Shown one piece after another: positions 6,231 to 63,794 of a DNA stretch of 64,000 bases (the stretch's first letter is position 1; each line of letters opens with the position of its first letter). Below the pieces are notes generated by a model, which worked only from the letters and a program-made list of their open reading frames with translations, searched no databases and had not been told where the DNA came from. The position numbers and the translations under genes were made by a program. The stretch comes from a virus (Duplodnaviria; Caudoviricetes), in IMG/VR virus record IMGVR_UViG_3300028591_000098, positions 32,001 through 96,000 of that record; one strand, given 5' to 3'.

Positions 6231-6635
6231 ATGAAATCAATTAAAGATATAATATTAGAAGGAAAAGATCAATCTATTATATCAACATTTAAAGATGGAG
6301 AAAATTCAATGCTTTCAATGATCGCTAAGCGTATTGAAAAATGGGATAAAAATTCAGGTAAACATTCTCAAGAACCAATGTTTTTGACAGACATTAATTT
6401 TTCAAATATGTCATGGGAAACTGTTGATTCTTTAAATATTGAAGTTGGTGATCCAAATAATAGTACTGATAATTCTAAGAATGTTGGTTTATATGATGGA
6501 TTCTTAAAAGAGTATATTATGGGTGAGAAAACTCCTAATGAACAATATATACTTGGTGTATTTATTGATAGATGTTTCTTACCTATTGTTGATAAAGAAA
6601 CATTCGATAAATTTTGGAATAAATTAAATAAATAA
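6231..6635 (+). CDS. putative internal head protein (capsid-targeting-like leader)
   Basis: starts MKSIKDIILE|G. Confidence 0.6.
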   Translation: MKSIKDIILEGKDQSIISTFKDGENSMLSMIAKRIEKWDKNSGKHSQEPMFLTDINFSNMSWETVDSLNIEVGDPNNSTDNSKNVGLYDGFLKEYIMGEKTPNEQYILGVFIDRCFLPIVDKETFDKFWNKLNK

Positions 6636-6637
6636 TT

Positions 6638-7387
6638 ATGAAAGATTTATATACATACCTATTAGAAGAAAAAATCTTAGATAATAAATCCATATATCTT
6701 TGGAATTATGTTCAAATGAATGAATGGAATGAACAACAAATACTTAAAAAACTTGAAGATACATTAATTGATTTTGGAATGAAATGTACTTTTGTTATGG
6801 TAGATGTTGCTAAAAATAAAAATTATCAAGAAGAGCATGATTATCCTATAAAACTTAGAGATGCAGCAATTAAAGCATCAAAAGAGTATAAATCATTTGA
6901 TAAGAAAAATGATAAAGAAAAGGAAAAATGGATTCTTAACAAAATTGAAGAAATTAAAAAGAATGCAGAATATTTAACTAAAGATGATGGACGTTTAAAA
7001 CATTTAGTTAAAGATACTAATAAGGTTCCATTGATAGTTCCCCCAACAAAAATAGATTTAACAACAATTGGATTAAATGATTTCAATATACATATTAAAT
7101 CAGATATTCATAATCAAATGAGCGAAAGGGTTATTAAATGGAAATCTGATAATGTTAAAGAATTATCTAAAGAAATATTTGATGCATTTCCAAAGAATGA
7201 TGAATTTAAAGAACATTTTAAAGGATTCGCAATATATACCAAAAATCAAGTAATAAACAAATTTGATTCAATATATATAACATTTATGTTTGATGATGAA
7301 TTTGAAAACACATTAGAAAAAAATATTAAAAGATTCTCAGATAAAATGCGTGATTTATATGCATCAGGAGAATATATGGGAGACTAA
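6638..7387 (+). CDS. putative internal head protein (capsid-targeting-like leader)
   Basis: starts MKDLYTYLLE|E. Confidence 0.55.
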   Translation: MKDLYTYLLEEKILDNKSIYLWNYVQMNEWNEQQILKKLEDTLIDFGMKCTFVMVDVAKNKNYQEEHDYPIKLRDAAIKASKEYKSFDKKNDKEKEKWILNKIEEIKKNAEYLTKDDGRLKHLVKDTNKVPLIVPPTKIDLTTIGLNDFNIHIKSDIHNQMSERVIKWKSDNVKELSKEIFDAFPKNDEFKEHFKGFAIYTKNQVINKFDSIYITFMFDDEFENTLEKNIKRFSDKMRDLYASGEYMGD

Positions 7388-7390
7388 ATT

Positions 7391-7774
7391 ATGAAAGTTA
7401 TAAAAAATAATTTTATTCCTTGGGGAGATGCTGATTATATTAATGTATTTGGTGTAATATTTACAAAAAAAGATAATGACAAATTATCTAAAAAGGTTCT
7501 TAATCATGAATCTATACATACATTACAAATGAAATATTTGTTATATATTCCATTTTATATTTTATATGTAATAGAATGGTTGTTAAAAATACCAGTATCT
7601 ATGTTTATAAATCAATCAAAATATGATCTTTTAGATTATGCATATAGATCAATATCTTTTGAACAAATGGCATATTATAATGATAAAAATTATGATTATT
7701 TAGAAACTGCAAATCCTTATGAATGGGTAAAATATATATTTAAAATGTATGAAATCAATAGAAGAAATAGCTAG
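7391..7774 (+). CDS. HExxH zinc-metallopeptidase-like membrane protein
   Basis: NHESIH motif, hydrophobic LYIPFYILYVIEW stretch and AYRSISFEQMAY. Confidence 0.6.
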   Translation: MKVIKNNFIPWGDADYINVFGVIFTKKDNDKLSKKVLNHESIHTLQMKYLLYIPFYILYVIEWLLKIPVSMFINQSKYDLLDYAYRSISFEQMAYYNDKNYDYLETANPYEWVKYIFKMYEINRRNS

Positions 7775-8036
7775 TGAAAATTCGCAAGTAAATGAATCAT
7801 TAGTATATGATCAAATAATACAAAAACTTAATGAAGCAAAAGAAGCTGGTACACCTATAGATGAAGGTTTGCTTGGTGCTGTTGGTGGTGCAATTTTGGG
7901 TACTGCATTTGGACCTAAATTAGGAGGAGCAATATGTAAAGCTCTTGGTGTAGATGTTAAGGGTGCATTTGGCTCATTAATAACATCTCGTCTTGTAATG
8001 GGTGCGATAGGTACAACAATGGGATGGAGAATGTAA
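7749..8036 (+). CDS. glycine-zipper protein with acidic pro-region
   Basis: MKSIEEIASE leader; VNE, LNE and IDE sites; then GLLGAVGGAILG... hydrophobic Gly-rich C-terminus. Confidence 0.6.
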   Translation: MKSIEEIASENSQVNESLVYDQIIQKLNEAKEAGTPIDEGLLGAVGGAILGTAFGPKLGGAICKALGVDVKGAFGSLITSRLVMGAIGTTMGWRM

Positions 8037-8040
8037 TAAT

Positions 8041-8718
8041 ATGAAAAACTTACAAGATATAATACAAGAAAAACTTCAAATAGGAAGTAAAACAAAAGTT
8101 AGTTCACATAAATATCAACCAAAAAATAGAGATGAATTAAAAGAATTAGTAGATCATCTTATTGAAGAAAGAGGATTATTTGCTAATTTAAATGACATTG
8201 ATACTTCTAAAATAGATGATATGTCTAAATTATTTTTTGAATCAAACTTTAATGGTGACATATCTAAATGGGATGTAAGTAATGTTGAAAATATGTTTCG
8301 TATTTTTAGCCGTTCTAATTTTAATGGCGATATATCTAATTGGGATGTAAGTAAAGTAGAAAATATGGAATGTATGTTCTCAGCATGTGAATTTAATAAA
8401 GATATATCGAAGTGGAACGTAAGTAATGTCAAAAATATGGGTGGTATGTTTGCTAATGGTTTTTTTGATAAAGATATATCAAAATGGGATGTTAGTAATG
8501 TAACTAATATGGACGAAATGTTTGAAAATTCTGTATTTAAAGGTGATATATCAAAATGGGACGTACGTAATGTTGAAGATATGTATTGTATGTTTTATAA
8601 TTCCAAATTTAATGGTGATATATCTAAATGGAATGTTAAAAAATGTAAAAAAATGAGTTTTATGTTTGATGAATCTCCTTTAAAAAATCATCCACCTAAA
8701 TGGTATAGTGAGAAATAA
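8041..8718 (+). CDS. DUF285/BspA-like repeat protein (6 repeats) with capsid-targeting-like leader
   Basis: MKNLQDIIQEKLQIGSK leader; 24-aa FNGDISKWDVSNVxxMxxMF repeats; PPKWY cap. Confidence 0.85.
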   Translation: MKNLQDIIQEKLQIGSKTKVSSHKYQPKNRDELKELVDHLIEERGLFANLNDIDTSKIDDMSKLFFESNFNGDISKWDVSNVENMFRIFSRSNFNGDISNWDVSKVENMECMFSACEFNKDISKWNVSNVKNMGGMFANGFFDKDISKWDVSNVTNMDEMFENSVFKGDISKWDVRNVEDMYCMFYNSKFNGDISKWNVKKCKKMSFMFDESPLKNHPPKWYSEK

Positions 8719-8722
8719 TAAT

Positions 8723-9268
8723 ATGAAAAACTTACAAGACATAATACAGGAGAAACTCCAAATTGGATCTAAATCTAAAATTAGTAGTTATAAGTATCAC
8801 CCAAAAGATAGAGATGAATTGATAAAAATAATCAAAACATTATTAGATGAACGCGGAAAAGATGCAAATTTAAACGATATTGATACATCTAAAATAACTG
8901 ATATGTCTTATTTATTTAAATGGTTTGATCCTCATAATATAGATATATCTAAATGGGATTTATCCAATGTTACTGATATACATGGTATGTTTTCTGGATG
9001 TAATAAATTTAATTGTGATTTGTCTAATTGGAATGTATCTAATGTTAAAAATATGGGTGTTATGTTTAATGGTTGCGAAAAATTTAATTCGGATTTAAGC
9101 GAATGGGACATATCTAATGTTAAAAATATGTATGGTATGTTTTATGATTGTAAAAATTTTAATTCAGATTTAAATAATTGGGATGTATCTAATGTTGAAA
9201 ATACAAGATTTATGTTTATTGGCAGTCCTTTACAAAAAACTCCCCCAAAATGGTATTATAAATCATAA
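8723..9268 (+). CDS. DUF285/BspA-like repeat protein (4 repeats) with capsid-targeting-like leader
   Basis: ATG at 8723 gives the MKNLQDIIQE leader; 25-aa WDVSNV repeats. Confidence 0.85.
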   Translation: MKNLQDIIQEKLQIGSKSKISSYKYHPKDRDELIKIIKTLLDERGKDANLNDIDTSKITDMSYLFKWFDPHNIDISKWDLSNVTDIHGMFSGCNKFNCDLSNWNVSNVKNMGVMFNGCEKFNSDLSEWDISNVKNMYGMFYDCKNFNSDLNNWDVSNVENTRFMFIGSPLQKTPPKWYYKS

Positions 9269-9294: not shown

Positions 9295-9759
9295 ATGAAA
9301 AACTTACAAGACATAATACAAGAGAAACTTCAGATTGGATCTAAATCTAAAATTAGTCAATATAAATATCATCCTAAAAATTGGAATGAATTAAAAGTAT
9401 TATTAAAACGATTATTAAGTGAACGTGGTAAAGATGCTGATTTAAATGATATTGATATATCTAAAATAACTAATATGGCAAGGTTATTTATTGGTTTAGA
9501 TCCTCATAATATAGATATATCTAAATGGAACGTATCTAATGTAACAAATATGGGGGACATGTTTGATGGATGTAAAAACTTTGATTCAGACTTAAGTGAA
9601 TGGGATGTATCTAATGTTAAAGATATGGATGGTATGTTTTATTTATGTAAAAATTTTAATTCAGATTTAAGTGAATGGGATGTATCTAAAGTAAAAAATA
9701 TGAGATTCATGTTTAATGGTAGTCGACTAGAAAAAAATCCACCGAAATGGTATAAATAA
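9295..9759 (+). CDS. DUF285/BspA-like repeat protein (3 repeats) with capsid-targeting-like leader
   Basis: MKNLQDIIQE leader; WDVSNV repeats; NPPKWYK cap. Confidence 0.85.
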   Translation: MKNLQDIIQEKLQIGSKSKISQYKYHPKNWNELKVLLKRLLSERGKDADLNDIDISKITNMARLFIGLDPHNIDISKWNVSNVTNMGDMFDGCKNFDSDLSEWDVSNVKDMDGMFYLCKNFNSDLSEWDVSKVKNMRFMFNGSRLEKNPPKWYK

Positions 9760-9848: not shown

Positions 9849-11150
9849 ATGAGCGTAAAATTACTTAAAGACCTGAACTTTGCTGAAAAGATCAATTCAA
9901 CAGAAGCTATCACAGAGGCAGGTAAAGAAATCTTGAATAACTACCGTGCTTATGTTTATACAAATCCAGCAACATGCGGTATTGTTAATGGCTTCGTTAT
10001 GGAAGCGTCTAAATTTGGCTTTGATACAGGTTTGAAGAGTATATTGGAATCTGTAAATAAGTTTATTAGTGAAAATAATATTTCTTGGAAACTTGCATCA
10101 GCATGCGAAAGTATTTCAAACAACAATTCAACTTATAATTACATCAATAAGCTTGGTGTACAACAAGTTGAAAAAATTTTGGAAATGGATGAATCTAATG
10201 TAGTATCTTACATCAAAGCTGGAGCATTAAAGAATATCCAATATATTCCAGAATTTAGACAAGTTTGCAAAGAAGTATATAAGACTAATATTACAGAAGC
10301 TTATAATACAACTTATAGTGTAACAAATCCTATTTCTTACATTTTAACTGAAGGTGAAAACATAACATTCCAAGTTAATGGAACTGCTTATAAGATTACT
10401 GAAGGTAAAGTAGAACAAGTTAACTGTGATAATGCAGTATTTGCAAGAATGAACAAACTTCTTGAATCATTCAAGAGAGATTCAGACAATAATTTGATTT
10501 ATGAATTTAGAGATAATCAAAATAATATCACTAAAATTACTCTTATAGATAAAGAAGTTAATGAAAACGAATTTGAAAAGAAAATCAAATTTGAAAAAGG
10601 TAAGATTAATGAAGAATTTACTGAAAGTGTTAAATTCCGTGAATTTGCAAATATGCTTTCAAAGGCAATGCCAATGAATGAAAAACTTTCGTTCATGAAT
10701 ATTACTTCTACAATAGCTGATGTATTTGAAAATATGGAAAACATTGGTGTACTTAATAATGTTAAAGTTCTTACATGTGCAAATGGTACAACATGTGCTA
10801 TTATCGAGGCAAAAGATAATGTTAACTTAACAGTATTCCATTCAATTAATGCAGGTTCATCTTGTAACAACTATGAGTTTATGGCAGAAGCTCTTAATAA
10901 CGTAATTAAAGTTTCAGGTATAGATCTTAGAAGTATGTATGAAGAACGTATTAATGAAGATTGTAAGAAGATGGAAACACCTGAAGCAAAAGAAATACGT
11001 GAACAATTAGAAGCTAATAAAGAAGCACAATATGATATTCGTAAGAAGAAGATTGCAATGTTAGCAGAACAATATAGAAATGATCCTGTAAAACTTGCTT
11101 TACTTAATAAAGTTGCGAAAGATTTAGCTATTTTAGAAAAACAACAATAA
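9849..11150 (+). CDS. hypothetical head-associated/scaffold-like protein
   Basis: 433 aa; many I/L/V-x-E sites (ITE, ILE, LLE, VNE, INE); C-terminal coiled coil; followed by a terminator. Confidence 0.5.
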   Translation: MSVKLLKDLNFAEKINSTEAITEAGKEILNNYRAYVYTNPATCGIVNGFVMEASKFGFDTGLKSILESVNKFISENNISWKLASACESISNNNSTYNYINKLGVQQVEKILEMDESNVVSYIKAGALKNIQYIPEFRQVCKEVYKTNITEAYNTTYSVTNPISYILTEGENITFQVNGTAYKITEGKVEQVNCDNAVFARMNKLLESFKRDSDNNLIYEFRDNQNNITKITLIDKEVNENEFEKKIKFEKGKINEEFTESVKFREFANMLSKAMPMNEKLSFMNITSTIADVFENMENIGVLNNVKVLTCANGTTCAIIEAKDNVNLTVFHSINAGSSCNNYEFMAEALNNVIKVSGIDLRSMYEERINEDCKKMETPEAKEIREQLEANKEAQYDIRKKKIAMLAEQYRNDPVKLALLNKVAKDLAILEKQQ

Positions 11151-26643: not shown

Positions 26644-27075
26644 TTAATTTTCACACAAGTCTAAACTTATCAATTTAACATTTTTTATAGTATATATTGG
26701 GTTGCCATTTTCATCTATTTTTTGATTACCTTCTTCATCTAAAACTGGTTCTCTATCACCTAACATACGTGGATTCAATTTAAATTCGTAACCTTTATCC
26801 ATAAGTTCTTTAACTACTTTACCTTTAGGAGTATCTAATAATTCAATTTTACCATATACTTGATTATTTTCAATCCAAATATTTTCCACCTTCCCAGCCG
26901 CATTAATTAAATTATTACTTAAAAAATTTTCATAATCTGGATGAAGTTCACATATTTTATTACCTTCTTTATTAAATTTTTCTATAGCTTTTTTCATCAT
27001 ATTAGAATCATAAATTCTTCCATTATGATTAGGATGATTAAGCTCTCCCATAATACATCTTAAATCTAATTCCAT
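26644..27075 (-). CDS. prohead protease (T4 gp21-like) paralog, probably inactive
   Basis: NHNGRIY, ELHP, VYGKIELLDTPKG motifs; catalytic SSRG.G replaced by NPRMLG. Confidence 0.7.
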   Translation of the reverse strand: MELDLRCIMGELNHPNHNGRIYDSNMMKKAIEKFNKEGNKICELHPDYENFLSNNLINAAGKVENIWIENNQVYGKIELLDTPKGKVVKELMDKGYEFKLNPRMLGDREPVLDEEGNQKIDENGNPIYTIKNVKLISLDLCEN

Positions 27076-27105
27076 AATTATTTTAAATCTTTTAATAACA
27101 TTTAT

Positions 27106-27435
27106 CTAATTACATATTAAGTTATATAAATAATCTTGTATAGGTCCTTGGAAAATATCAAAATTATTATCCTTTAAGAACTTTTCAAACTTATCTTTAA
27201 AAATTCTTGGATCCTCATGAGTATTTTTGTATTCTATTACCTTTGGATCATTTTCATCTAAACAATTATAATCCTCTATACAAGCATATTTGCCAATATG
27301 AAGCATATTAAAGTTAACTGTTTCACCTAAATGATTTTCATATGATCTTGGTTCTACTTTTGTTACAATAGCTTCACCTACACTATTATCAACATAATAC
27401 TCAAAAAATATTCTATCACCTGCTTTGTAATTCAT
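27106..27435 (-). CDS. hypothetical protein
   Basis: intact ORF. Confidence 0.55.
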   Translation of the reverse strand: MNYKAGDRIFFEYYVDNSVGEAIVTKVEPRSYENHLGETVNFNMLHIGKYACIEDYNCLDENDPKVIEYKNTHEDPRIFKDKFEKFLKDNNFDIFQGPIQDYLYNLICN

Positions 27436-28178: not shown

Positions 28179-29006
28179 TTATAATTTTGATAGTAATGTT
28201 ATAATTGTAATTGATTTTGGAACAAAATTTGATATTACTCCATTAATACATTGACTGATTGTTTCTCCAGAAGATATTGTGTCATCTAAAATCAATATAT
28301 CTTTACCATCAATTTTTGATCTTATATCTTCATCATACTCAGTACTTATATATTTTATATATTTTAAATATTTTTTATTCATCATTTTTACCTCAAATGA
28401 TGTCCCTTTCATTCTTCTAAAACTACGATGAATTTCGGCAATCACTTTATTAAATTCATTTGGGTAATCTTTTTGTATTTGTTCTTTATCAATTAAATCA
28501 TCATCAATAATTTCTTCAATAGATAATTTAACAAAAAATTCATTTAATATGTCTTTAGACTTTATTTGATCCGAAATGATTTTCATGAATTTTTCATTAA
28601 TATCACTTGTTGATGGTGTTACGATGATAGTATCATATTGTGAATTTATCTTTTTACAAATACTTAAAAATCTTTTAATATACTTATAAATTTCTTCATT
28701 CGTTATATTAAATTTCCATCCATATTTATTCTTTAATGCATATATAAAAGGATTTCCATCTCTTTGTTGATTATCTATATCATATAACTTTGTTCTCTTA
28801 AATATTGATATGACATCATATTCTTTATATTTTGAATATACCGGATTATTTACTAATGAAAAGTCAATACCATGATTATGTGTATCTGTCAATGATACTG
28901 TTTTAGATATTGGATCAATATTTAAGCCCTCAACAATATATGAATCAAGTTCATTTATGTCAGTACTATTAAATGATTCTTTTATTATTTGTGAAAGTGA
29001 TTTCAT
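28179..29006 (-). CDS. type I phosphoribosyltransferase-fold protein with capsid-targeting-like leader
   Basis: MKSLSQIIKE|S leader; PRPP-binding loop ILILDDTISSGETI; DGNPFIYALK. Confidence 0.75.
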   Translation of the reverse strand: MKSLSQIIKESFNSTDINELDSYIVEGLNIDPISKTVSLTDTHNHGIDFSLVNNPVYSKYKEYDVISIFKRTKLYDIDNQQRDGNPFIYALKNKYGWKFNITNEEIYKYIKRFLSICKKINSQYDTIIVTPSTSDINEKFMKIISDQIKSKDILNEFFVKLSIEEIIDDDLIDKEQIQKDYPNEFNKVIAEIHRSFRRMKGTSFEVKMMNKKYLKYIKYISTEYDEDIRSKIDGKDILILDDTISSGETISQCINGVISNFVPKSITIITLLSKL

Positions 29007-50072: not shown

Positions 50073-50128
50073 TAAATTATGTTAAAATATATTTATATAC
50101 TAAAATAGAATTTTTTATAAATTAAATT

Positions 50129-51687: not shown

Positions 51688-51689
51688 AC

Positions 51690-52121
51690 TTATCTAATGT
51701 AATTTTTAGGATCATCTCCACTTAGTTCAATTTCCTTTTTGGTTTTAACAAATTCCAAATTCATTGCGTCATGATACCACATCATCATCTTACCAAAATT
51801 AAATTCATTTAAATATTCAGGTACAGAATTTATAATAATATCTGGATTATTCATTGAACGATTTTGTGCAACCTCATATGATGTTTGTTTGTCAATTATT
51901 GTGTCCTTAGGGTTTTGACGAGCAATACCTACATGCAAAATTGTATTTCCATATGTATCTCTCCAAACATTACCTACCATTGTAACTGCTTGTAATTTTC
52001 CCCATTTAGTATATGTACGTCCATTAATCACAACTTCTGCACATGATTCACGATTTTTTGTTATTGTTGTAAAACTAAATGAATTAACTAACTCCTTTGT
52101 CAAATAATCAAATTTTTTCAT
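51690..52121 (-). CDS. hypothetical protein
   Basis: VGIARQNPKD...DKQTSYEVAQNR, resembling a common phage G.A.C.P.D.F.K..G..IA..R motif. Confidence 0.55.
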   Translation of the reverse strand: MKKFDYLTKELVNSFSFTTITKNRESCAEVVINGRTYTKWGKLQAVTMVGNVWRDTYGNTILHVGIARQNPKDTIIDKQTSYEVAQNRSMNNPDIIINSVPEYLNEFNFGKMMMWYHDAMNLEFVKTKKEIELSGDDPKNYIR

Positions 52122-52160
52122 AGTTTAAAAAAGATATTTTTATAATAAATTTAATTAAAA

Positions 52161-52637
52161 TTACGAATATAATTTAACATTCGTATAAAATCTCTCTTTA
52201 GTATATTTAATACTCTCCTTTGGACATTCAGGTGTATTTACTGTTCTAAATGTTGTAGAGTCTGCATCATTAAATAAATCTAACAAAGAAATTTCGTTAA
52301 GTTCAACAATCTCGTCATCAAAATATGTGCAGTATAATTTTGATAGACCTTTACTATAAATCTCTAATTCTAATTTTTGTACTCGATATCCTAATTTATC
52401 TAATGCAAGAATATCTGCATAAGTCAATTTACATATACCAAATAAAAAATATTTAAAACAGTTAAGTGAATTAAATGCAAATTTAGATTTAGGATAATAA
52501 GGAACACAATGGGTCCATGGTCTTATTGTCTTTAATCTAGAATTTATTTTTTTAATTACTTCACTGTTAGATAAATTATCAATCCCAAAAATTATTTCAT
52601 TATTAGGATCAACATCTATTAATCTATAAGCTTCCAT
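52161..52637 (-). CDS. hypothetical protein
   Basis: intact ORF. Confidence 0.55.
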   Translation of the reverse strand: MEAYRLIDVDPNNEIIFGIDNLSNSEVIKKINSRLKTIRPWTHCVPYYPKSKFAFNSLNCFKYFLFGICKLTYADILALDKLGYRVQKLELEIYSKGLSKLYCTYFDDEIVELNEISLLDLFNDADSTTFRTVNTPECPKESIKYTKERFYTNVKLYS

Positions 52638-52665
52638 AAATAATAATTTTTATTAAAAAAATAAA

Positions 52666-52694
52666 TGTCTATTATATCATAGATAAAATAGACA
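52666..52694 (-). terminator. putative terminator hairpin
   Basis: tgtctatt.tatc-ata-gata.aatagaca. Confidence 0.45.
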
Positions 52695-52720
52695 CTTTAC
52701 AAATAAAAATTTTAAATTTA

Positions 52721-53695
52721 TTAAATATTTAATTTGTTTCTAAAATATTCAATTGTTTTAATTAATCCTTCATGTAATTCAATTTTTGGTGTATATCCAA
52801 ACATTTTATATGCTTTAGATATATCTGCTTTACGTTGGAGAGGATCATCTTTAGGTAATTCCTTAAATACAATTTCTGATGTTGATTCTGGAATTAATTC
52901 TAAAACTAAATTAGCTAATTCATTTATTGTAAATTCTTCTGGATTACCTATATTTACTGGACCAAACTCATCATTTTTCATAAATTCGATCATCCCATGT
53001 ATTAAATCATCTATGTATTGAAATGATCTAGTTTGATTACCATCTCCATATATAGTTATTGGTTTATTAATTAATGCTTGACATACAAAATTAGATATTA
53101 CTCTTCCATCATCTGGATCCATATAAGGACCATATGTATTAAATATTCTAATTATTTTACAATTAACACCAAGTTTACGACATTCATATAATATTGTTTC
53201 TGCTATACGTTTACCTTCATCATAGCAAGATCTTGGACCAATAATATTTACATTTCCAAAATATGATTCATTTTGTGGATGATGATTTATATCTGGATTG
53301 CCATAAACTTCCGAAGTTGAAGCATGTAATAATTTTGCATCATAATATTTTGTCAATTTACAAATATCGTCAACTGCCAATGAAGCTTTAATTGTTTCTA
53401 TTGGGTATTTTAAATATTTTGGTGGTGATGCTGGACATGCCAAATTATAAATTTCATCAACAAAATTATAGAAAAAATCTTCTATAATATCTTTTAAAGC
53501 AATAAAAGTACCTTTATCAGTAATATCAGCCACCCAACAACAATAATTCTTATTACTTAAAAATTTATTTACATTTGATAATTTACCTGTATAAAAATTA
53601 TCTATACACATTATCTTATTTCCTTCTTCTAATAGTTTTTCGGTAAGATTTGTCCCAATAAAACCAGCGCCTCCAAATATTATTATATGTTTCAT
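52721..53695 (-). CDS. UDP-glucuronate decarboxylase (UDP-xylose synthase), SDR family
   Basis: GGAGFIG, IYNLACPASP, ASTSEVYG, RSCYDEGKR, RIFNTYGP, DGRVISNF. Confidence 0.9.
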   Translation of the reverse strand: MKHIIIFGGAGFIGTNLTEKLLEEGNKIMCIDNFYTGKLSNVNKFLSNKNYCCWVADITDKGTFIALKDIIEDFFYNFVDEIYNLACPASPPKYLKYPIETIKASLAVDDICKLTKYYDAKLLHASTSEVYGNPDINHHPQNESYFGNVNIIGPRSCYDEGKRIAETILYECRKLGVNCKIIRIFNTYGPYMDPDDGRVISNFVCQALINKPITIYGDGNQTRSFQYIDDLIHGMIEFMKNDEFGPVNIGNPEEFTINELANLVLELIPESTSEIVFKELPKDDPLQRKADISKAYKMFGYTPKIELHEGLIKTIEYFRNKLNI

Positions 53696-53700: not shown

Positions 53701-53892
53701 TTAATTATGTATATTACTTATTGGTTCTTTCTTTATATGAAGTCTAAATGCTGGGAATTTACTTTCTTGTTCATCCTTTTCTCTTTTAGCTTCTTCTTCT
53801 GTATTATAATAATTATACATTGTATTATCATCATAATATAATACATAAATATCTTGTGAATTTTCTAAAATAAAATTTTTAATATTTTTCAT
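53701..53892 (-). CDS. putative internal head protein (capsid-targeting-like leader)
   Basis: MKNIKNFILE|N. Confidence 0.6.
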   Translation of the reverse strand: MKNIKNFILENSQDIYVLYYDDNTMYNYYNTEEEAKREKDEQESKFPAFRLHIKKEPISNIHN

Positions 53893-53913: not shown

Positions 53914-54303
53914 TTATTCTTTTACGACAATTACCATTATATTATTAGATTCTATCATATTAAGTATGTCATCATAACTATATGTATGTTCATCAGAATT
54001 AAAGAAATCATTATCTATATTATACACCTTAACTCTAAATTCTTCATTAGTATGACATACCCAAGTTGATTTATTTTTTAATTCTGCTAAAAATATATGT
54101 TTATCTTTCCAATATTCATCATTATGTTTTATTTTATCAATAAGTTTATCAAATGATTCCTTATCATATGCATATAATGTTGGTTCTATTTCTTCATTGG
54201 TTTGTTCACATCTTATTTTTATAGAATCAATTGTTCTACCTTCTAATAATGAAATTTTGGAAATTTCATAATTTTCCAATATAAAGTCTTTTAAATTTTT
54301 CAT
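53914..54303 (-). CDS. putative internal head protein (capsid-targeting-like leader)
   Basis: MKNLKDFILE|N; second site LLE|G. Confidence 0.6.
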   Translation of the reverse strand: MKNLKDFILENYEISKISLLEGRTIDSIKIRCEQTNEEIEPTLYAYDKESFDKLIDKIKHNDEYWKDKHIFLAELKNKSTWVCHTNEEFRVKVYNIDNDFFNSDEHTYSYDDILNMIESNNIMVIVVKE

Positions 54304-54304: not shown

Positions 54305-54769
54305 TTATTTATACCATTTAGGTGGATTTTTTTGTAGTGGACTTGCAGAAAACATATTTGTCATATCTTCAACATTTGATACATTCCATTTTGATAAATC
54401 TGAATTAAATTTCATACATTTATAAAACATATATTTCATATTTGTAACATTAGATACATCCCAATTAGACAAATTCGAATTGAAATTTTTACAGTTATAA
54501 AATATCCATTCCATAGTAGTAACATTAGATACATCCCATTTAGATATATCTATATTATGAGGATCTAAGTATTCAAATAAATCAGACATATCAGTTATTT
54601 CAGATGTATCAATATCATTTAGATCTGCATTGTTACCACGCTCATCTAATAATTGTTTTAATAATTTTTGAAGTTCATCTTTATCTTTTGGATAATAATT
54701 ATATCCACTAACTTTAGTTTTACTACCTATTTGAAGTTTTTCTTGTATTATATCTTGTAAGTTCTTCAT
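54305..54769 (-). CDS. DUF285/BspA-like repeat protein (3 repeats) with capsid-targeting-like leader
   Basis: MKNLQDIIQE leader; WDVSNV repeats; NPPKWYK. Confidence 0.85.
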   Translation of the reverse strand: MKNLQDIIQEKLQIGSKTKVSGYNYYPKDKDELQKLLKQLLDERGNNADLNDIDTSEITDMSDLFEYLDPHNIDISKWDVSNVTTMEWIFYNCKNFNSNLSNWDVSNVTNMKYMFYKCMKFNSDLSKWNVSNVEDMTNMFSASPLQKNPPKWYK

Positions 54770-54774: not shown

Positions 54775-55317
54775 TTATTCTTTATACCATTTAGGTGGAT
54801 TTTTTTCTATTCCACTTTTCCAAAACATTTTAAACATTGATTTAACTTTAGATACATTCCAGTTATTTAAATTTGCTTTGAAATTTTTACAATTATTAAA
54901 CATTTGTTCCATATTTGTAACGTTAGAAACATTCCAATTACTTATATCAGAATTAAAATTATAACAGTCGAAAAACATAGAATCCATATTTATATTATTT
55001 GACATATCCCAATTACTTAAATCAGAATTAAAATGCTTACAATCATAAAACATATTATAAGTATAAATAACGTTAGACATATCCCACTCCGATATATCTA
55101 TATTATGTGGATCTAATCCATCAAATAAATATGACATATCTGTTATTTTAGATGTATCAATATCATTTAGATCTGCATCTTTACCACGTTCTTTTAATAA
55201 TTTTTTTAATATTTCCAATAAATCATCAGTTGTATTGGGGTGATACTTATATTTAGTAATCTTAGATTTAGATCCTATTTGAAGTTTTTCTTGTATTATA
55301 TTTTTTAAATTTTTCAT
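54775..55317 (-). CDS. DUF285/BspA-like repeat protein (4 repeats) with capsid-targeting-like leader
   Basis: MKNLKNIIQE leader; repeats; NPPKWYK. Confidence 0.85.
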   Translation of the reverse strand: MKNLKNIIQEKLQIGSKSKITKYKYHPNTTDDLLEILKKLLKERGKDADLNDIDTSKITDMSYLFDGLDPHNIDISEWDMSNVIYTYNMFYDCKHFNSDLSNWDMSNNINMDSMFFDCYNFNSDISNWNVSNVTNMEQMFNNCKNFKANLNNWNVSKVKSMFKMFWKSGIEKNPPKWYKE

Positions 55318-55352: not shown

Positions 55353-56408
55353 TTATAATAAGTTATCATCATCACCGCGAGAATCATCATCTTCATCATC
55401 TTCATCATCAGAATTATTCTTATTATCATCTTCTTCTTTTTTATCTTTCTTATCATTTTCTTTATCTTCTTCATCATCTTCTTTCTTATCTTCTCTTTCT
55501 TTACGTTCTCCTGTTAATGAGAATATAGCTGGATCATCAGTTTTATCGGCTTCTAATAAATCAAGAATTGATTCAATAAGTTTCTTTACATCATCTGGTA
55601 ATTCTATTAAAGAATCTTCTGCAAAATCTTGTACCCATATAGCCTTTTCACCTTTACCAAAAATATGCATAAGTGAACGTGTGTTTTCAATAGATATTTC
55701 TTTAAATTCTCCTTCACCTTCTGCTTTACCAAATGGCATCTTCTTAGTATATTTCCAACGAAGTGCTATAGCTTCTTCACCACTCTTAAACTTAATTGCA
55801 GAGAAATAATATTCTCTTGGTAAAGATATTTCATTAGATACTAAAAGTTCAAGTTGTTTAGCAGCTTTAACTTTATCAGGACCATCAAGAAGTTCTAAAA
55901 CCTTTTCAACAGTTTCTGACTTCATTTCTTCTTCACCATCATCTTCTTTAATAATTTGAGTAAATTCAAATTCATTTAAAAATGATTCATTACATTCTCC
56001 TGGGCATGGACATATTGATTTAACCATTGTTGCAGGATTTTTAGCAGTAGCCACATCTTCAGGAGAAAAATATACAACCCAATACATACCAAGATTAATT
56101 TTAGTCATTTTAGTAAGACCTTGTTGCATAATATATCCAGCTAATGTAGTAAATCTATCTAATGGATTAAATAATACATTATTAATAGATTCTTCATTAA
56201 CAAATTTTGTACTATGTAATTTAATAGATACGTTATCTTCACCAACCGCAGCAACTACACCTAATCTTAAACAAAATAAATTATTAATATTTGTCAATAT
56301 ATTTTCTATAGGTGTATAATGATTAGTTACACCTGTTGTTGTCAATGCATTTCCAGGTTGTACATCGGCAGTTTTAGCTGATTCAACTATTTGTGTAAAT
56401 TTTCTCAT
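55353..56408 (-). CDS. putative internal head protein with very acidic C-terminal tail
   Basis: MRKFTQIVE|S leader; internal LNE and IKE sites; D/E/K low-complexity tail. Confidence 0.6.
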   Translation of the reverse strand: MRKFTQIVESAKTADVQPGNALTTTGVTNHYTPIENILTNINNLFCLRLGVVAAVGEDNVSIKLHSTKFVNEESINNVLFNPLDRFTTLAGYIMQQGLTKMTKINLGMYWVVYFSPEDVATAKNPATMVKSICPCPGECNESFLNEFEFTQIIKEDDGEEEMKSETVEKVLELLDGPDKVKAAKQLELLVSNEISLPREYYFSAIKFKSGEEAIALRWKYTKKMPFGKAEGEGEFKEISIENTRSLMHIFGKGEKAIWVQDFAEDSLIELPDDVKKLIESILDLLEADKTDDPAIFSLTGERKEREDKKEDDEEDKENDKKDKKEEDDNKNNSDDEDDEDDDSRGDDDNLL

Positions 56409-56436: not shown

Positions 56437-57144
56437 TTATTCTTTATTAATATACCATTTTGGAGGATTTTTTTCTATTTCACTTTTCCAAAACATTTTT
56501 CTCATTTTTACATTTTTAGATACGTCCCATTTTGATAAATCTGAATTAAAATTTTCGCATCTATAGAACATATATGTCATATCGTTAACATTAGATACAT
56601 CCCAATTACTTAAATCTGAATTAAATTTTTCACACTGTGAAAACATACTAACAGTATTTGTAACTTTAGATACATCCCATTTACTTAAATCAGATTCAAA
56701 GTTTTCACAATCATAAAACATATCTTTCATATTTGTAACTTTAGATATATCCCAGTTAGACAAATCTGAATTAAAATTATGACAACCTTCAAATACACCT
56801 TTCATACTTCTAACATTAGACACATCCCATTTTGATAAATCCGAATTAAAGTTTGTACAATTCCAAAACATAAATTCCATGTTTTCTACATTAGACACAT
56901 TCCATTGCGATATATCTATATTATGTGGATCTAATCCATTAAATAAATCTGATAAATCTGACATATCAGTTATTTTAGATGTATCAATATCATTTAGATC
57001 AGCATCTTTACCACGTTCATCTAATAATTGTTCTATTAATTTTCCAAGTTCATCTTTATCTTTAGGATGATATTTATATGAACTAACTTTTGTTTTACTG
57101 CCAATTTGAAGTTTTTCTTGTATTATATCTTGTAAGTTTTTCAT
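56437..57144 (-). CDS. DUF285/BspA-like repeat protein (6 repeats) with capsid-targeting-like leader
   Basis: MKNLQDIIQE leader; repeats; NPPKWY. Confidence 0.85.
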   Translation of the reverse strand: MKNLQDIIQEKLQIGSKTKVSSYKYHPKDKDELGKLIEQLLDERGKDADLNDIDTSKITDMSDLSDLFNGLDPHNIDISQWNVSNVENMEFMFWNCTNFNSDLSKWDVSNVRSMKGVFEGCHNFNSDLSNWDISKVTNMKDMFYDCENFESDLSKWDVSKVTNTVSMFSQCEKFNSDLSNWDVSNVNDMTYMFYRCENFNSDLSKWDVSKNVKMRKMFWKSEIEKNPPKWYINKE

Positions 57145-57145: not shown

Positions 57146-57691
57146 TCAATTTTCCTTATACCATTTTGGTGGATTTTTTTCTAAAGGACACCCATTAAAT
57201 GCTCCTCTCATGTCTTTAATTTTAGATACATCCCAATTTGATAAATTTGACTTAAAATCATAACAACCATAAAATATATTTAATATATGTTCAACATTAG
57301 ATACATCCCATTTAGATAAATCAGAATTAAAATTATAACATTTATAAAACATCCATCCCATATTATTTACATTTGATACATTCCAATTTGATAAATCAGA
57401 ATTGAAATCATAACATTCGGCAAACATACCCCACATATCTTTAACATTAGATACATCCCATTTAGATATATCTATATTATGAGGATCTAAATTATCAAAT
57501 AACTCTGTCATATCAGTTATTTTAGATGTATCTATATCATTTAAATTAGCATCCTTACCACGTTCATCCAATAATTGGTTTAATAATTTTCTAAGTTCAT
57601 CTTTATCTTTAGGGTAATATTTATATGAACTAACTTTTGTTTTACTGCCAATTTGAAGTTTTTCTTGTATTATATATTGTAAGTTTTTCAT
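57146..57691 (-). CDS. DUF285/BspA-like repeat protein (4 repeats) with capsid-targeting-like leader
   Basis: MKNLQYIIQE leader; repeats; NPPKWYK. Confidence 0.85.
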   Translation of the reverse strand: MKNLQYIIQEKLQIGSKTKVSSYKYYPKDKDELRKLLNQLLDERGKDANLNDIDTSKITDMTELFDNLDPHNIDISKWDVSNVKDMWGMFAECYDFNSDLSNWNVSNVNNMGWMFYKCYNFNSDLSKWDVSNVEHILNIFYGCYDFKSNLSNWDVSKIKDMRGAFNGCPLEKNPPKWYKEN

Positions 57692-58433: not shown

Positions 58434-59573
58434 ATGAATATACTTATTGTAGGCGCTGGATTATTTGGTGTTACTATAGCTAGACTATTAACTAATAAAG
58501 GTCATGTATGTACAATAATAGATCAACGAAATCATATTGGTGGTAATTGTTATGATGAACCATATTCAATTGATAATCATACAATGACTGTTCACAAATA
58601 TGGACCTCATGTATTTCATACAAGTAATCAACAAGTTTGGACTTTTGTTAATAAATATGCTAAATTTAATAATTTTAGAACTAATATATTAGCAAAAGAT
58701 GATAATAATAAGTTATATCATCTTCCATTTAATATGAATACATTTTACGATATATTTGGTATATTTAATATAGAAAAAGTTAAGAATATAATACAACAAG
58801 AAATTAAAGACGCAAATATAACCAAAATAACGAATCTTGAAGAAAAAGCAATTTCTATGGTAGGTACAACTGTTTATAATATATTAATAAAAAACTATAC
58901 AGAAAAACAATGGAATTGTAAATGTACTGAACTTTCTCCAGATATAATATCTAGATTACCTTTACGTTTTTATTTTGATAATAATTATTTTAATGATATT
59001 TATCAAGGTGTTCCTATAGGCGGATATACTAAATTAATAGAAAATATTATAAATGGAGTTGATAATGAAAAACCAATTAAATATATTTTAAATACTAAAT
59101 TTGATTTATCAATATATGACAACTATGATAAGATAATTTATTGTGGATCTATAGATGAATTATTAAATTACAAATTTGGATATTTAGAATATAGAAGTTT
59201 AAAATTTGAAAATACTGAATATATATTTGATTTTATAAATTCAAATGGTTGTGCTCATATAAATTTAGTAGGAACACAAAGAGGAACTAGAGAAATTGAA
59301 CATGTATATTATACTCCTGAAAGTTTAGAATATTTTATTGGTCAAAAATTAATTAAAACATTGGAAGTACCTGATGACTGGGATTTAACTAAAGAAAGAT
59401 TTTATAGTATTAATAACAATAAAAATAATGATTTATATGAAAAATATGTAAATTATTTAGAAAAAACATATCCAAATATTATATTGGGAGGTAGACTCGG
59501 TTTATATAAATATTTAGATATGGATGATGTTATATTGTTAGCTTTTGATAAATCAAATGTTATTAACATGTGA
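58434..59573 (+). CDS. glf: UDP-galactopyranose mutase
   Basis: VGAGLFG, R.HIGGNCYD, HKYGPHVFHT, YTEKQW, RLPLR, YQGVP..GYT, GGRLG.YKYLDMD. Confidence 0.92.
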   Translation: MNILIVGAGLFGVTIARLLTNKGHVCTIIDQRNHIGGNCYDEPYSIDNHTMTVHKYGPHVFHTSNQQVWTFVNKYAKFNNFRTNILAKDDNNKLYHLPFNMNTFYDIFGIFNIEKVKNIIQQEIKDANITKITNLEEKAISMVGTTVYNILIKNYTEKQWNCKCTELSPDIISRLPLRFYFDNNYFNDIYQGVPIGGYTKLIENIINGVDNEKPIKYILNTKFDLSIYDNYDKIIYCGSIDELLNYKFGYLEYRSLKFENTEYIFDFINSNGCAHINLVGTQRGTREIEHVYYTPESLEYFIGQKLIKTLEVPDDWDLTKERFYSINNNKNNDLYEKYVNYLEKTYPNIILGGRLGLYKYLDMDDVILLAFDKSNVINM

Positions 59574-60599: not shown

Positions 60600-60601
60600 T
60601 T

Positions 60602-61051
60602 CTAATCATAATATTTTTGAATATATTGAAATACATCAGGAATACATTTAGTTTGCTTTTCTTTAATAGTTTCTTCATTAAACCATTTATATCTTGAATG
60701 TTCTCTCGATATTTTTACTTCTGGTTTTGTTTCTAAATTAACTATGAAATATTGTGTGTCTGAACCATTATCATGTACTTCTTTTCCAAAAGACTTCATA
60801 GAATGTTCTTCATTAAATGATAGTGTTATTCCAGTTTCTTCTTTAATTTCTCTAATTAAAGCATCTTTAGGCGATTTATCTTTTTCATCAATAGCACCAC
60901 CAACAAACCCCCATTTTCCACCAAATAGTTTAACATATCCAGCTCTTTGTAATAAAAGAATTTCATCAGTATCTTTACAAACTAAAATACCATCTACATA
61001 ATGTTTTATTTCTTCTTTGTTTTCCTTTATATATTTTAAAATAGATTTCAT
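60602..61051 (-). CDS. Nudix hydrolase with capsid-targeting-like leader
   Basis: MKSILKYIKE|N; Nudix box GGAIDEKDKSPKDALIREIKEETGI; S.EH..YKW. Confidence 0.85.
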   Translation of the reverse strand: MKSILKYIKENKEEIKHYVDGILVCKDTDEILLLQRAGYVKLFGGKWGFVGGAIDEKDKSPKDALIREIKEETGITLSFNEEHSMKSFGKEVHDNGSDTQYFIVNLETKPEVKISREHSRYKWFNEETIKEKQTKCIPDVFQYIQKYYD

Positions 61052-61052
61052 A

Positions 61053-61610
61053 TTATATAAATTTTATTTTATATTTATACCATTTAGGTGGATTTTTTTG
61101 TAAAGGACAATTATAAAACATATTATTTATATTTTCAACATTAGATACATCCCATTTACTTAAATCTGAATTAAATTTCTCACACCCAGAAAACATATAA
61201 TACATATCTGTAACTTTGGATACGTCCCATTCATTTAAATCTGAATTGAAATTATAACAACATTCAAACATACATCTCATATTTGTAACATTAGATACAT
61301 CCCATTTTGATAAATCTGAATTAAAATCATAACAATTATAAAACATACATTTCATATTTTCAACATTCGATACGTCCCATTGTGATATATTTATATTATG
61401 AGGATTTAAATTATTAAATAAATATGCCATTTCTGTTATATTAGATGTATCAATATCATTTAGATTTGCATTTTTACCACGTTCTTTTAATAATTGTTTT
61501 AATAATACTCTAAGTTCATCCCAATTTTTCGGGTGATATTTATATCCACCAACTTTAGTTTTACTACCAATTTTAAGACCTTCTTTTATATAATTACTTA
61601 AAAACTTCAT
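61053..61610 (-). CDS. DUF285/BspA-like repeat protein (4 repeats) with capsid-targeting-like leader
   Basis: MKFLSNYIKE|GLKIGSKTKV; repeats; NPPKWYK. Confidence 0.85.
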   Translation of the reverse strand: MKFLSNYIKEGLKIGSKTKVGGYKYHPKNWDELRVLLKQLLKERGKNANLNDIDTSNITEMAYLFNNLNPHNINISQWDVSNVENMKCMFYNCYDFNSDLSKWDVSNVTNMRCMFECCYNFNSDLNEWDVSKVTDMYYMFSGCEKFNSDLSKWDVSNVENINNMFYNCPLQKNPPKWYKYKIKFI

Positions 61611-62082
61611 TGTATTCTTCTTTTAAATATTGTTTTATTTGATTAAATCTTTTTAATAAATATTTATCACTTACTGATAATCGAGATGTTGGTAATTTAG
61701 ATATTTTTTTTGTTTTTTCTTCATAATATTTATAATAAAAAATTAAAAACTCTTTTGTTTCTTTATCAAAATATTCTTTAAGTTTATCATATTTTTCTGG
61801 AAGATTTAATCTAATAAAATCTATAACATCTTTATTATCAAATTCCTTTTTATTTTTTCTATTTTCTCTTAATAATTCAGAAATTTGAAGTTCTATTTCA
61901 TGTATTTTATTAGATTCTATTCCATATTTTCTTGCATAGTGTTGTTTTTCCTTTTTTTCTATTGCATAAGAAACATTATTATAATCATCCCTCATTTCTT
62001 CTTCAGAATAATTAAAATTATTTACCTTTGTATTACTTCCTATTTTAATACCTTCCTTTATATAATTAACTATGTATTTCAT
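61594..62082 (-). CDS. helical protein carrying the same extended leader as the DUF285 family
   Basis: MKYIVNYIKE|GIKIGSNTKV followed by an unrelated sequence. Confidence 0.65.
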   Translation of the reverse strand: MKYIVNYIKEGIKIGSNTKVNNFNYSEEEMRDDYNNVSYAIEKKEKQHYARKYGIESNKIHEIELQISELLRENRKNKKEFDNKDVIDFIRLNLPEKYDKLKEYFDKETKEFLIFYYKYYEEKTKKISKLPTSRLSVSDKYLLKRFNQIKQYLKEEYNEVFK

Positions 62083-62091
62083 AAAAATAAA

Positions 62092-62712
62092 TTAAAAATT
62101 TTTATACCAATTTAGTTCATTACCTTCTAGTGGTGAATCCATAAACATATGATTTATATTACATAATTTACTAACTTTCCATTTTGATAAATCATTATTA
62201 AATATAATACTTCCTCTAAACATATACTCCATATTTTTAACATTAGATACATCCCAATTAGACAAATCTGAATTAAATTTCTCACACCCGTAAAACATAC
62301 AATACATATCTGTAACGTTAGATACATCCCAATTAGACAAATCAGAATTAAAATTATAACAACATTTAAATATACTTTTCATATCTGTAACTTTAGATAC
62401 ATTCCATTTACTTAAATCTGAATTAAAATCAAAACAATTATAAAACATATATTTCATATTTTTTACATTAGATACATTCCATTTAGATATATCTATATTA
62501 TGAGGATTCAAATTATTAAATAGAAGATCCATATCAGTTATTTTAGATGTATCAATATCGTTTAAATCTGCATCTTTACCACGTTCCTTTAATAATTGTT
62601 TTAATATTTTTCTAAGTTCATCGTTATCTTTTGGATAATAATTATATACTCTAACTTTTGTTTTACCGCCAATTTGAAGTTTTTCTTGTATTATATCTTG
62701 TAAATTTTTCAT
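62092..62712 (-). CDS. DUF285/BspA-like repeat protein (5 repeats) with capsid-targeting-like leader
   Basis: MKNLQDIIQE leader; repeats; divergent cap ELNWYK. Confidence 0.85.
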   Translation of the reverse strand: MKNLQDIIQEKLQIGGKTKVRVYNYYPKDNDELRKILKQLLKERGKDADLNDIDTSKITDMDLLFNNLNPHNIDISKWNVSNVKNMKYMFYNCFDFNSDLSKWNVSKVTDMKSIFKCCYNFNSDLSNWDVSNVTDMYCMFYGCEKFNSDLSNWDVSNVKNMEYMFRGSIIFNNDLSKWKVSKLCNINHMFMDSPLEGNELNWYKNF

Positions 62713-62714
62713 AT

Positions 62715-63410
62715 TTAATTTCCCTTATACCATTTTGGTGGATTTTTTTCTAATGGAGTATCATAAAACATATAGTCCATATCTCTAACTTTAGAAACGT
62801 TCCATTTATTAAGATCAGAATTAAAAATATGACAATATTCAAATACACCTTTCATATTTGTTACGTTAGATACATTCCATTTACTTAAATCTGAATTAAA
62901 GTTTTCACAATCTCTAAACATCCATGACATATCTGTAACTTTAGAAACGTTCCATTCATTAAGATCTGAATTAAAATTATGACAACTTTCAAATGTGCCT
63001 TTCATATTTGTTACGTTAGATACATCCCATGCACTTAAATCTGAATTAAATTGTTTACATTGAAAAAACGTACCAAACATATTTTTAGTATTAGACACAT
63101 CCCATTTTGATAAATCACAATTAAAATGTATACAATTAAAAAACATACCTTCCATTGTATTAACGTTAGACACATCCCATTGTGATATATCAATATTATG
63201 AGGATCTAAATATGCAAATAATCTTGACATATCAGTTATTTCAGACGTATCAATATCATTTAGATCTGCATCTTTACCACGTTCATTTAATAATTGTTTT
63301 AATAATTTTTTAAGTTTATCTTTATCTTTTGGATGATATTTATATGAACTAACTTTTGTTTTACCACCAATTTGAAGTTTCTCCAGTATTATGTCTTGTA
63401 AGTTTTTCAT
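62715..63410 (-). CDS. DUF285/BspA-like repeat protein (6 repeats) with capsid-targeting-like leader
   Basis: MKNLQDIILE leader; repeats including a 150-bp internal duplication. Confidence 0.85.
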   Translation of the reverse strand: MKNLQDIILEKLQIGGKTKVSSYKYHPKDKDKLKKLLKQLLNERGKDADLNDIDTSEITDMSRLFAYLDPHNIDISQWDVSNVNTMEGMFFNCIHFNCDLSKWDVSNTKNMFGTFFQCKQFNSDLSAWDVSNVTNMKGTFESCHNFNSDLNEWNVSKVTDMSWMFRDCENFNSDLSKWNVSNVTNMKGVFEYCHIFNSDLNKWNVSKVRDMDYMFYDTPLEKNPPKWYKGN

Positions 63411-63413
63411 ATT

Positions 63414-63794
63414 TTACCAACCACATTTATCTGAATTAGCATAATCCCATTCAATTCTATAATCTTCTTCTTCCTTAGTTAAATTTAATTCACCTTCGTT
63501 TTCTACACCTTTAATTACACATGCAGTAACAAATTTAGTTAAACGTTTTCTATCTTCTCCAGTTAAATGTCCATTAACTTTACGAAGAATTATTTGACAT
63601 AATTTTGATATTACTGATGAATTTTCTAATTTTTCAATTTCAAATTCACCTTTTTTATATTTTTTAACTAAATTATCTATTAATGGTTTAAAATAATGTT
63701 TATATATATCTGAATTATTATCCAATTCCATACAAGCATCAAATATTATTTTATTTGCATTAGATTCCGTAATATATTCTTTAATGTTCTTCAT
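63414..63794 (-). CDS. putative internal head protein (capsid-targeting-like leader)
   Basis: MKNIKEYITE|S. Confidence 0.6.
   Translation of the reverse strand: MKNIKEYITESNANKIIFDACMELDNNSDIYKHYFKPLIDNLVKKYKKGEFEIEKLENSSVISKLCQIILRKVNGHLTGEDRKRLTKFVTACVIKGVENEGELNLTKEEEDYRIEWDYANSDKCGW

Follow-up and report, generated by a model that had tools for sequence, protein, structure and literature searches.

A ten-residue N-terminal tag resembling the T4 capsid-targeting sequence recurs on diverse genes of an uncultured rumen jumbo phage

We have investigated a short N-terminal sequence, or tag, that recurs on many genes within a 64,000-nucleotide stretch of virus DNA, the window, which comprises bases 32001-96000 of a 163,395-bp IMG/VR virus record (IMGVR_UViG_3300028591_000098, referred to as G000) with a G+C content of 25% and an estimated completeness of 64%. 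The source is an uncultured rumen jumbo phage. The best DNA match to the record among datasets is a sheep-gut metagenome, and relatives with portal proteins 67-87% identical are found on contigs of up to 410 kb; the 410-kb relative, G002, is 97% complete. The nearest named phages, as judged by the portal protein, are an uncultured 462-kb phage, Sphingomonas phage PAU, Tenacibaculum phage PTm1 and the Lak phages, at only 32-42% identity. The tag extends from Met1 to Glu10 and was detected with a loose protein pattern, M-[KR]-x-h-x-x-h-h-x-E, and with a DNA pattern, ATGAARNNNNTNNNNNNNWWHNTNNNNGAR.

A sequence-only reading of the window had listed 19 open reading frames (ORFs), nine non-DUF285 and ten DUF285, as beginning with this tag, and translation confirmed that all 19 begin as written with Glu at residue 10. 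Their consensus is M-K-x-[LI]-x-x-[YFI]-[IL]-x-E or, expressed as a propeptide consensus, M-K-x-[LI]-x-x-[YFW]-[IV]-x-E. On the plus strand, the gene at 6231..6635 (134 residues, MKSIKDIILE; no Pfam or PHROG match), located in a baseplate-module operon, is followed by those at 6638..7387 (249 residues, MKDLYTYLLE then EKILDNK) and 7749..8036 (95 residues, MKSIEEIASE). Three DUF285 genes lie next to them, at 8041..8718 (225 residues, with a longer leader, MKNLQDIIQEKLQIGSKTKV; Pfam DUF285, PF03382, 1.7e-56, 189.6 bits, over the gathering score), 8723..9268 (181 residues; listed from GTG 8708, the true start being ATG 8723) and 9295..9759 (154 residues). The other tagged genes of the window are on the minus strand, for which the coordinate used in the earlier list is the low end, the start codon lying at the high end. 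At 28179..29006 a 275-residue protein (MKSLSQIIKE) has a weakly phosphoribosyltransferase (PRTase)-like C-terminus (Pribosyltran 1.4e-5, 24.9 bits, under the 26.3-bit cut-off; no PHROG match). A first array contains genes at 53701..53892 (63 residues, MKNIKNFILE) and 53914..54303 (129 residues, MKNLKDFILE), DUF285 paralogs at 54305..54769 (154 residues), 54775..55317 (180 residues, MKNLKNIIQE), 56437..57144 (235 residues) and 57146..57691 (181 residues, MKNLQYIIQE), and, at 55353..56408, a 351-residue protein with a probable variant tag, MRKFTQIVE, and no Pfam or PHROG match. A second contains a NUDIX hydrolase at 60602..61051 (149 residues, MKSILKYIKE; Pfam NUDIX 1.2e-17, domain from residue 19), DUF285 paralogs at 61053..61610 (185 residues, MKFLSNYIKE), 62092..62712 (206 residues) and 62715..63410 (231 residues, MKNLQDIILE), a chimeric gene at 61594..62082 (162 residues) in which a DUF285-type long leader, MKYIVNYIKEGIKIGSNTKV, precedes a non-DUF285 cargo, and a gene at 63414..63794 (126 residues, MKNIKEYITE). 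A 20th tagged gene, beyond the listed 19, encodes 99 residues beginning MKNIKNYINE; its 3' part occupies 63808..64000 (genome 95808-96107) and its start, at genome 96107, is just past the window end.

Recurrence of the tag is not a product of chance, as ATGAARNNNNTNNNNNNNWWHNTNNNNGAR has 19 matches in the window against 0.40 expected, none of 100 shuffles reaches 19, and internal Met residues, used as a control, all but lack the tag. Eighteen of the 19 matches are gene starts and one is internal to a 1694-residue ORF; the genes at 7749 and 63808 are missed by this pattern because codon 8 of the former is GCT and the latter starts beyond the window. With the loose pattern, the whole record carries the tag at the N-terminus of 37 of 250 ORFs (∼1 in 7), compared with 1 of ∼1,000 internal Met. 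A leader position-specific scoring matrix (PSSM), proposed in the sequence-only reading, was built here from 84 unique leaders and used to score individual starts and internal-Met decamers. The contention that the tag is not a generic AT-rich start is borne out by the internal-Met control, by the DNA shuffles and by AT-rich outgroups, and the block of small ORFs at 11.9-36 kb is, as had been observed, almost free of it, containing the single tagged gene at 28179. The three variants proposed in the same reading fared unequally. MRKFTQIVE at 55353, with Glu at residue 9, is plausible in that its G002 orthologue begins MKKFSKSINE. The start at 19885 (MKTLLE) scores only ∼3 bits on the PSSM, and that at 4587 (MKSVNFLDFL..., with ...LVNE ending at residue 20) lies outside the pattern. 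An additional candidate at 51690 (MKKFDYLTKE) fits the loose pattern, probably by chance, its orthologue having no tag.

Tagged genes of the record consist of 12 DUF285 paralogs and 25 singletons. Within the window, "19 diverse cargoes" thus overstated the case, as ten of the 19 belong to one paralog family; the whole record has 25 mutually unrelated non-DUF285 cargoes. The 12 paralogs have ∼25 N-terminal residues in common, and the nine other DUF285 copies of the window align at 53-64% identity. Pure paralogy as the origin of the shared start was rejected, since it accounts for these 12 genes only: the other 25 cargoes had no mutual similarity after residue 12 in an all-against-all BLASTP comparison, and no shared upstream DNA cassette was seen before tagged genes. 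The leaders are encoded by 113 distinct DNA 30-mers with synonymous codons at the conserved positions, indicating that the constraint acts on the peptide. Selectivity is also evident, the tag being absent from the portal, terminase, baseplate, fibre, helicase, RuvC and RtcB genes. It is not a Sec, Tat or lipoprotein signal peptide, which would have a hydrophobic core of ∼10 or more residues after a basic N-region; the leader has three hydrophobic positions followed by polar residues. True signal peptides in the genome differ from it, for example MKKFILTIVMALTMMFTANAQ at 45236-46360.

Among the cargoes of G000, recognised domains are NUDIX, a ferritin-like domain and the sub-threshold PRTase, the remainder having no Pfam or PHROGs match; a PHROG search with nine further cargoes found nothing. 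Of the two enzymes named in the sequence-only reading, the PRTase is the one that falls short of the Pfam cut-off. The ferritin-like or rubrerythrin-like protein is encoded outside the window (G000 8497-9000), the tag immediately preceding the domain (6e-18), and its gene heads an operon of five tagged genes and a DUF285 gene. Conservation of the tag extends to diverged proteins, orthologue pairs retaining it at 28-56% cargo identity. The G002 orthologue of 6231, at 218662, keeps it (MKSLDTFITE) at 28% identity, and in the 6638 family L4, Y7 and E10 are kept in 11 of 11 homologues, the G002 orthologue being located in the head module. A second, 'long' leader form of ∼20 residues (…E-K-h-x-h-x-K-D/T…) is also observed, and the DUF285-type version is found on other cargoes, namely 61594 and three G002 genes. 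The 61594 cargo matches an internal part of an untagged 390-residue G002 protein, and that of 7749 has its homologue in the C-terminal region of a 232-residue G002 protein without a tag. Swapping of cargo behind a constant tag is thus visible, by sequence comparison, in 61594, the three G002 genes and the 7749 cargo.

The boundary between tag and cargo was apparent in both alignments and structural models. In 34 of 36 NUDIX homologues sampled (53-92% identical) a leader-like start terminating in Glu is present, being degenerate in the other two; some of these leaders read …NWITE or …DWINE. The leader is followed by a variable linker of 3-13 residues and then by the conserved KHYVDG core. In an AlphaFold2 model of the 8041 DUF285 protein (predicted local distance difference test score, pLDDT, 93), residues 4-13 form a helix of their own, residues 15-20 have pLDDT <50 and a domain of pLDDT 98 follows, a solenoid resembling leucine-rich repeats (LRRs), for which Foldseek returned weak matches only, all to LRR proteins. 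The model of 6638 similarly has a helix at residues 4-10 and disorder at 11-19; overall it is poor, and a fold assignment for this family was dropped (pLDDT 59). Models and alignments together support a detachable helical tag joined to its cargo through a disordered linker whose length varies.

The tag resembles a sequence of known function. T4 ipII and ipIII, as read from the T4 record, both begin MKTYQEFIAE, described in one paper as a capsid-targeting sequence that is removed by a single cut. It fits the tag pattern, and its PSSM score of 15.3 bits is exceeded by only 2 of 3,216 internal-Met decamers, the third being at 15.0. In T4, a foreign protein that carries the first 10 residues of IPIII is packaged and retained. 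Targeting depends mainly on residues 4 and 7, whereas processing relies on residues 8 and 10 and is blocked by Asp at residue 10 (PMC9026906). Information in the PSSM peaks at positions 2, 4, 7, 8 and 10. Glu occupies position 10 in 111 cases and Asp in 3, and the 3 with Asp are not real leaders, in a proteome that contains Glu and Asp at 7% each. The conserved positions are thus the ones with a function in T4, and Glu, not Asp, is a strict requirement at position 10. The T4 genome encodes a further protein of this type, gp61.1 (NC_000866 18966-19130), a 54-residue hypothetical protein beside the primase gene that begins MKTFKEFIKE and scores 22 bits.

Occurrence of the tag in other phages was estimated from hits to the DNA pattern, with a reversed pattern as control and a variant pattern permitting Tyr at codon 4. 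The 410-kb G002 has 89 matches (reversed control 1), three other relatives of 158-236 kb have 26-30 (0-1), a 170-kb relative (G007) 20 (0) and a 75-kb relative (G009) 17 (1), and three genomes of a sister lineage (255-294 kb; two 100% and one 90% complete) have 11-14 (0-2). In G002 the tag is on 79 of 541 ORFs, comprising 44 DUF285-like genes and 35 singletons, with two internal matches only. Numbers are far lower in Lak-A1 (542 kb, 5 matches) and PTm1 (225 kb, 3) and, with the variant pattern, in uncultured phage LR756500 (462 kb, 2) and PAU (219 kb, 1), the reversed control being 0 in each. T4 (169 kb) has 5 matches with either pattern (reversed control 0), ipII and ipIII being among them with the variant pattern. 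On these counts, the tag is a clade-wide trait.

The clade also encodes T4-type head proteins. The portal protein of G000 belongs to Portal_T4 (PF07230, 7e-86). In G002, a 565-residue ORF with an intact Peptidase_S77 domain (82910-84607) is followed by a Gp23-type capsid gene (84.7 kb; 3e-29). The His and Ser of this domain align to H85/S140, the catalytic residues of T4 gp21 (PMC12991175), and GELEHP and ISSR are kept in G002 and in >1,900 protease homologues. The protease (82.9 kb) and capsid genes of G002 are immediately preceded, on the same strand and in one operon-like block, by approximately 15 different tagged genes at 68.7-82.1 kb, and tagged genes are upstream of the protease in seven further loci of the rumen lineage. 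In its C-terminal half the protease ORF resembles a scaffold: it has a helical part, a low-complexity stretch that is acidic, and 12-residue repeats, VQNW[IV]xEEFAPE, in 5-10 tandem copies, a number that varies between strains to give proteins of 477, 489, 501, 513 and 525 residues, in steps of 12. In its core, aromatic-[IV]-x-Glu, the repeat corresponds to the tag at positions 7-10. The capsid protein starts M[FL]I[TN]E in every lineage and has further h-h-x-E sites before a Gly/Ala/Pro-rich stretch; in T4, the 65-residue gp23 propeptide ends …SFLTE (FLTE65) and gp22 starts MLKEQLIAE, and gp21 prefers I/L-x-E (PMC12991175). NWVSE in the G002 capsid protein was rejected as a conserved cut site, relatives having Q or D, and no usable difference was found with which to follow co-variation of the leader and the scaffold repeat between lineages.

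Combined, these results suggest that the 10-residue N-terminus is a T4-type capsid-targeting propeptide, to which we assign a probability of roughly 0.65, and that dozens of different proteins are probably enclosed in the head along with the phage DNA. The tag would form a short amphipathic helix, kept off the cargo by the flexible linker, that docks the protein on the scaffolding core of the assembling prohead. This core would be the C-terminal half of the protease-scaffold fusion, and the resemblance of its repeats to the tag may mediate docking. Once the shell has closed, the gp21-type serine protease would cut after Glu10, with an aromatic residue at P4, Ile/Val at P3 and Glu at P1, and the same enzyme would also cut the scaffold repeats and the N-terminus of the capsid protein. 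The cargo would remain in the head and leave with the DNA at infection. Docking, cleavage, virion retention, injection and an effector role are steps that we infer by analogy with T4; the anti-defence or host-takeover role envisaged in the sequence-only reading is speculation.

That reading had called the tag a T4-like capsid-targeting leader. The match to T4, conservation at its functional positions, the T4-type head genes, the gene context, the motif in scaffold and capsid protein and the detachable helix with its linker are independent computed lines that support the name. A number of observations weigh against it. Neither the window nor the 163-kb record contains an active-looking prohead protease or a capsid gene, which are known from relatives: no match to a Gp23-type capsid protein was found in the 64% complete record, and its only Peptidase_S77 match, a 143-residue gp21-like ORF at 26644..27075 (minus strand), keeps the His with Asn at the catalytic Ser position and is thus a likely inactive paralog, doubtful as a working protease. 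The tagged set is very large, ∼15% of genes (79-89 in the 410-kb genome), and we know of no packaged protein set that approaches this number. T4 internal proteins are small, highly basic and DNA-associated; the cargoes here are acidic, with a median isoelectric point (pI) of 5.2-5.6 for the mature forms and a pI >8 in only 13-16%. Ferritins form oligomers, and the ferritin-like cargo, if oligomeric, would be an odd candidate for ejection through a tail. Many of the tagged genes have sugar-nucleotide or other non-head genes as their neighbours. Finally, the motif alone is no proof, as T4 gp61.1 has it in near-perfect form yet is not, to our knowledge, a virion protein.

Upstream of the S77-like ORF and in the same frame (26644-27435, minus strand) is a 109-residue ORF ending in TAG, with 10 sense codons between the two; readthrough of this TAG by the phage's amber suppressor, if it occurs, would give a 263-residue fusion. 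An ORF at 9849-11150 was considered as a capsid protein and rejected, having no Pfam, PHROG or phage match and an orthologue in the G002 baseplate region. A 127-residue protein encoded at 7391-7774 (plus strand) contains a HESIH (HExxH) motif as well as a hydrophobic segment, and its PHROG match is phrog_15610, 'protease' (9e-28). Among atlas clusters with a Pfam family, the nearest has PF13699 (eCIS_core), assigned to 17% of its members only. The gene lies within tagged-gene arrays in G000 and, as the orthologue at 255798-256163, in G002. Between tagged arrays (49296-53695 and 58434-59573) are genes for a GT2 glycosyltransferase, an NAD-dependent epimerase/dehydratase, UDP-galactopyranose mutase, a protein with a Peptidase_G2 intramolecular-chaperone domain and a dUTPase-like protein. 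A protein resembling inosine monophosphate dehydrogenase or guanosine monophosphate reductase and an RtcB-type RNA ligase are encoded at 37649-38983 and 29116-30447, respectively, both on the minus strand. In both genomes a conserved promoter-like motif, AAATTATTTTTAAT, precedes the portal gene, several tagged genes or operons and large fibre-like genes at a distance of 25-60 nt (G000 8456, 22673, 31097, 107177 and 144103; G002 136446, 193094, 199905, 266295 and others); ahead of the replication genes that could be identified it was not seen.

The same observations may be accounted for in other ways. The tag could be a signal for a different machine, unrelated to the capsid, such as a modifying enzyme as in radical-SAM systems producing ribosomally synthesised and post-translationally modified peptides (RiPPs), a leader peptidase, for example the HExxH protein, a chaperone or a degradation system. 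Radical-SAM ORFs do exist in G000 and G002, the HESIH protein is encoded inside tagged-gene arrays of both, and gp61.1 carries the motif on a protein not known in the virion. However, a RiPP-like radical-SAM/SPASM link is not supported, the ORF having no SPASM match and not lying next to the dispersed tagged genes, and no such machine explains why the motif is that of the T4 capsid-targeting sequence (CTS), why Glu is never Asp, why the motif recurs in the scaffold and at the capsid protein start, or why tagged genes are beside the protease and capsid genes. We therefore consider this explanation unlikely. Slightly less probable still is that the tag is a prohead-protease site on proteins that are not delivered, which would either be activated or inactivated by cutting in the cytoplasm late in infection, or enter the prohead only to be degraded or expelled like the scaffold. 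This would suit the presence of the motif in the scaffold, which is destroyed in T4 (PMC9026906), the action of gp21 on non-virion substrates such as a host CD-NTase (PMC12991175), and the acidic pI, unlike that of DNA-bound internal proteins. Against it, the same 10 residues suffice in T4 for packaging and retention of foreign proteins (PMC9026906), and conservation of positions 4 and 7, tied in T4 to targeting rather than processing, points to docking and not to cutting alone.

A by-product of duplication or recombination in tandem arrays, or of an AT-rich start context, with no function at the protein level, is largely excluded. Many tagged genes are indeed tandem paralogs, the DUF285-type long leader has reached other cargoes (61594 and three G002 genes) and AAA is common as a second codon in AT-rich genomes. 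Such a process would not yield the tag on 25 mutually unrelated cargoes with no shared upstream DNA, would not hold the residue pattern while synonymous codons vary, and would not preserve it in orthologues at 28% identity; moreover, internal Met and shuffled DNA are without the pattern, and the AT-rich outgroups Lak-A1, PTm1 and PAU have only 5, 3 and 1 matches.

Earlier publications cover both the CTS and the idea that T4-like phages load a variety of proteins with it (PMC9026906, PMC3012670); our literature searches found no description of the tag expansion observed here. As in T4, the tag comprises 10 residues from Met1, ends in Glu, is conserved at positions 4, 7, 8 and 10 and resides on unrelated cargoes, in a clade with a T4-type portal, capsid protein and S77 protease in which tagged genes are near head genes. 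Unlike T4, which has a handful, 37 of 250 genes are tagged here and 79-89 in the 410-kb relative. The cargoes are acidic and often enzymes or LRR-like repeat proteins, whereas those of T4 are small and basic, and this clade, known from sequence alone, has the ∼20-residue long leader form and a protease fused to the scaffold. T-even phages contain polymorphic CTS-bearing internal-protein loci (Repoila et al. 1994, cited in PMC9026906). The arrays studied here resemble these loci in combining a conserved tag with fast-changing, non-homologous cargoes, in their plasticity and in the swapping of cargo behind a constant 5' end, and differ in being dominated by one expanded DUF285 family (12-44 copies) and in forming >10 genomic clusters.

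Phage P1, through its Dar proteins, and contractile injection systems (PVC, Afp) also have particle-loaded proteins that are delivered with or instead of DNA, and short N-terminal regions can serve as loading signals; the particle machinery and signals differ from those described here, and no sequence relation was found, none having been sought. The jumbo phages phiKZ, 201phi2-1 and SPN3US have propeptide-bearing inner-body and ejection proteins that are cut at S/A/G-x-E by a gp21 homologue (PMC5694885), and resemble the present clade in that a gp21-related protease cleaves many of their head proteins behind a Glu residue, as predicted here. SPN3US-like phages also have a truncated, presumably inactive protease paralog (PMC5694885) reminiscent of ORF 26644-27075. 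In contrast, propeptides of the phiKZ group are mostly long (many >100 residues, few ∼13-20) and heterogeneous, with a small residue (Ala/Ser/Gly) at P3, whereas the tag has a uniform length of 10 residues and, like that of T4, aromatic-Ile-x-Glu.

We put forward only tentatively the broader proposal that this rumen and gut jumbo phage lineage loads and injects most of its tagged proteins (up to ∼80-90), including 12-44 LRR-like DUF285 binders together with NUDIX, ferritin-like, HAD and P-loop enzymes, by means of a tag that mimics the scaffold repeat; we regard it as less likely than not. If the lineage does inject ∼80-90 products, this would be by far the largest virion-delivered proteome known. 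Should the tag function as it does in T4, where the virion-carried group includes anti-defence and takeover factors (IPI, Alt), a search with a short motif would be enough to catalogue the proteins delivered by uncultured jumbo phages. The T4 packaging code would in that case be old and portable across very distant T4-type phages, and the matching scaffold repeat would offer an idea for CTS docking, a step not yet understood for T4. The expansion of DUF285 genes under a single tag would likewise suggest that the binding proteins delivered are a diversified set.

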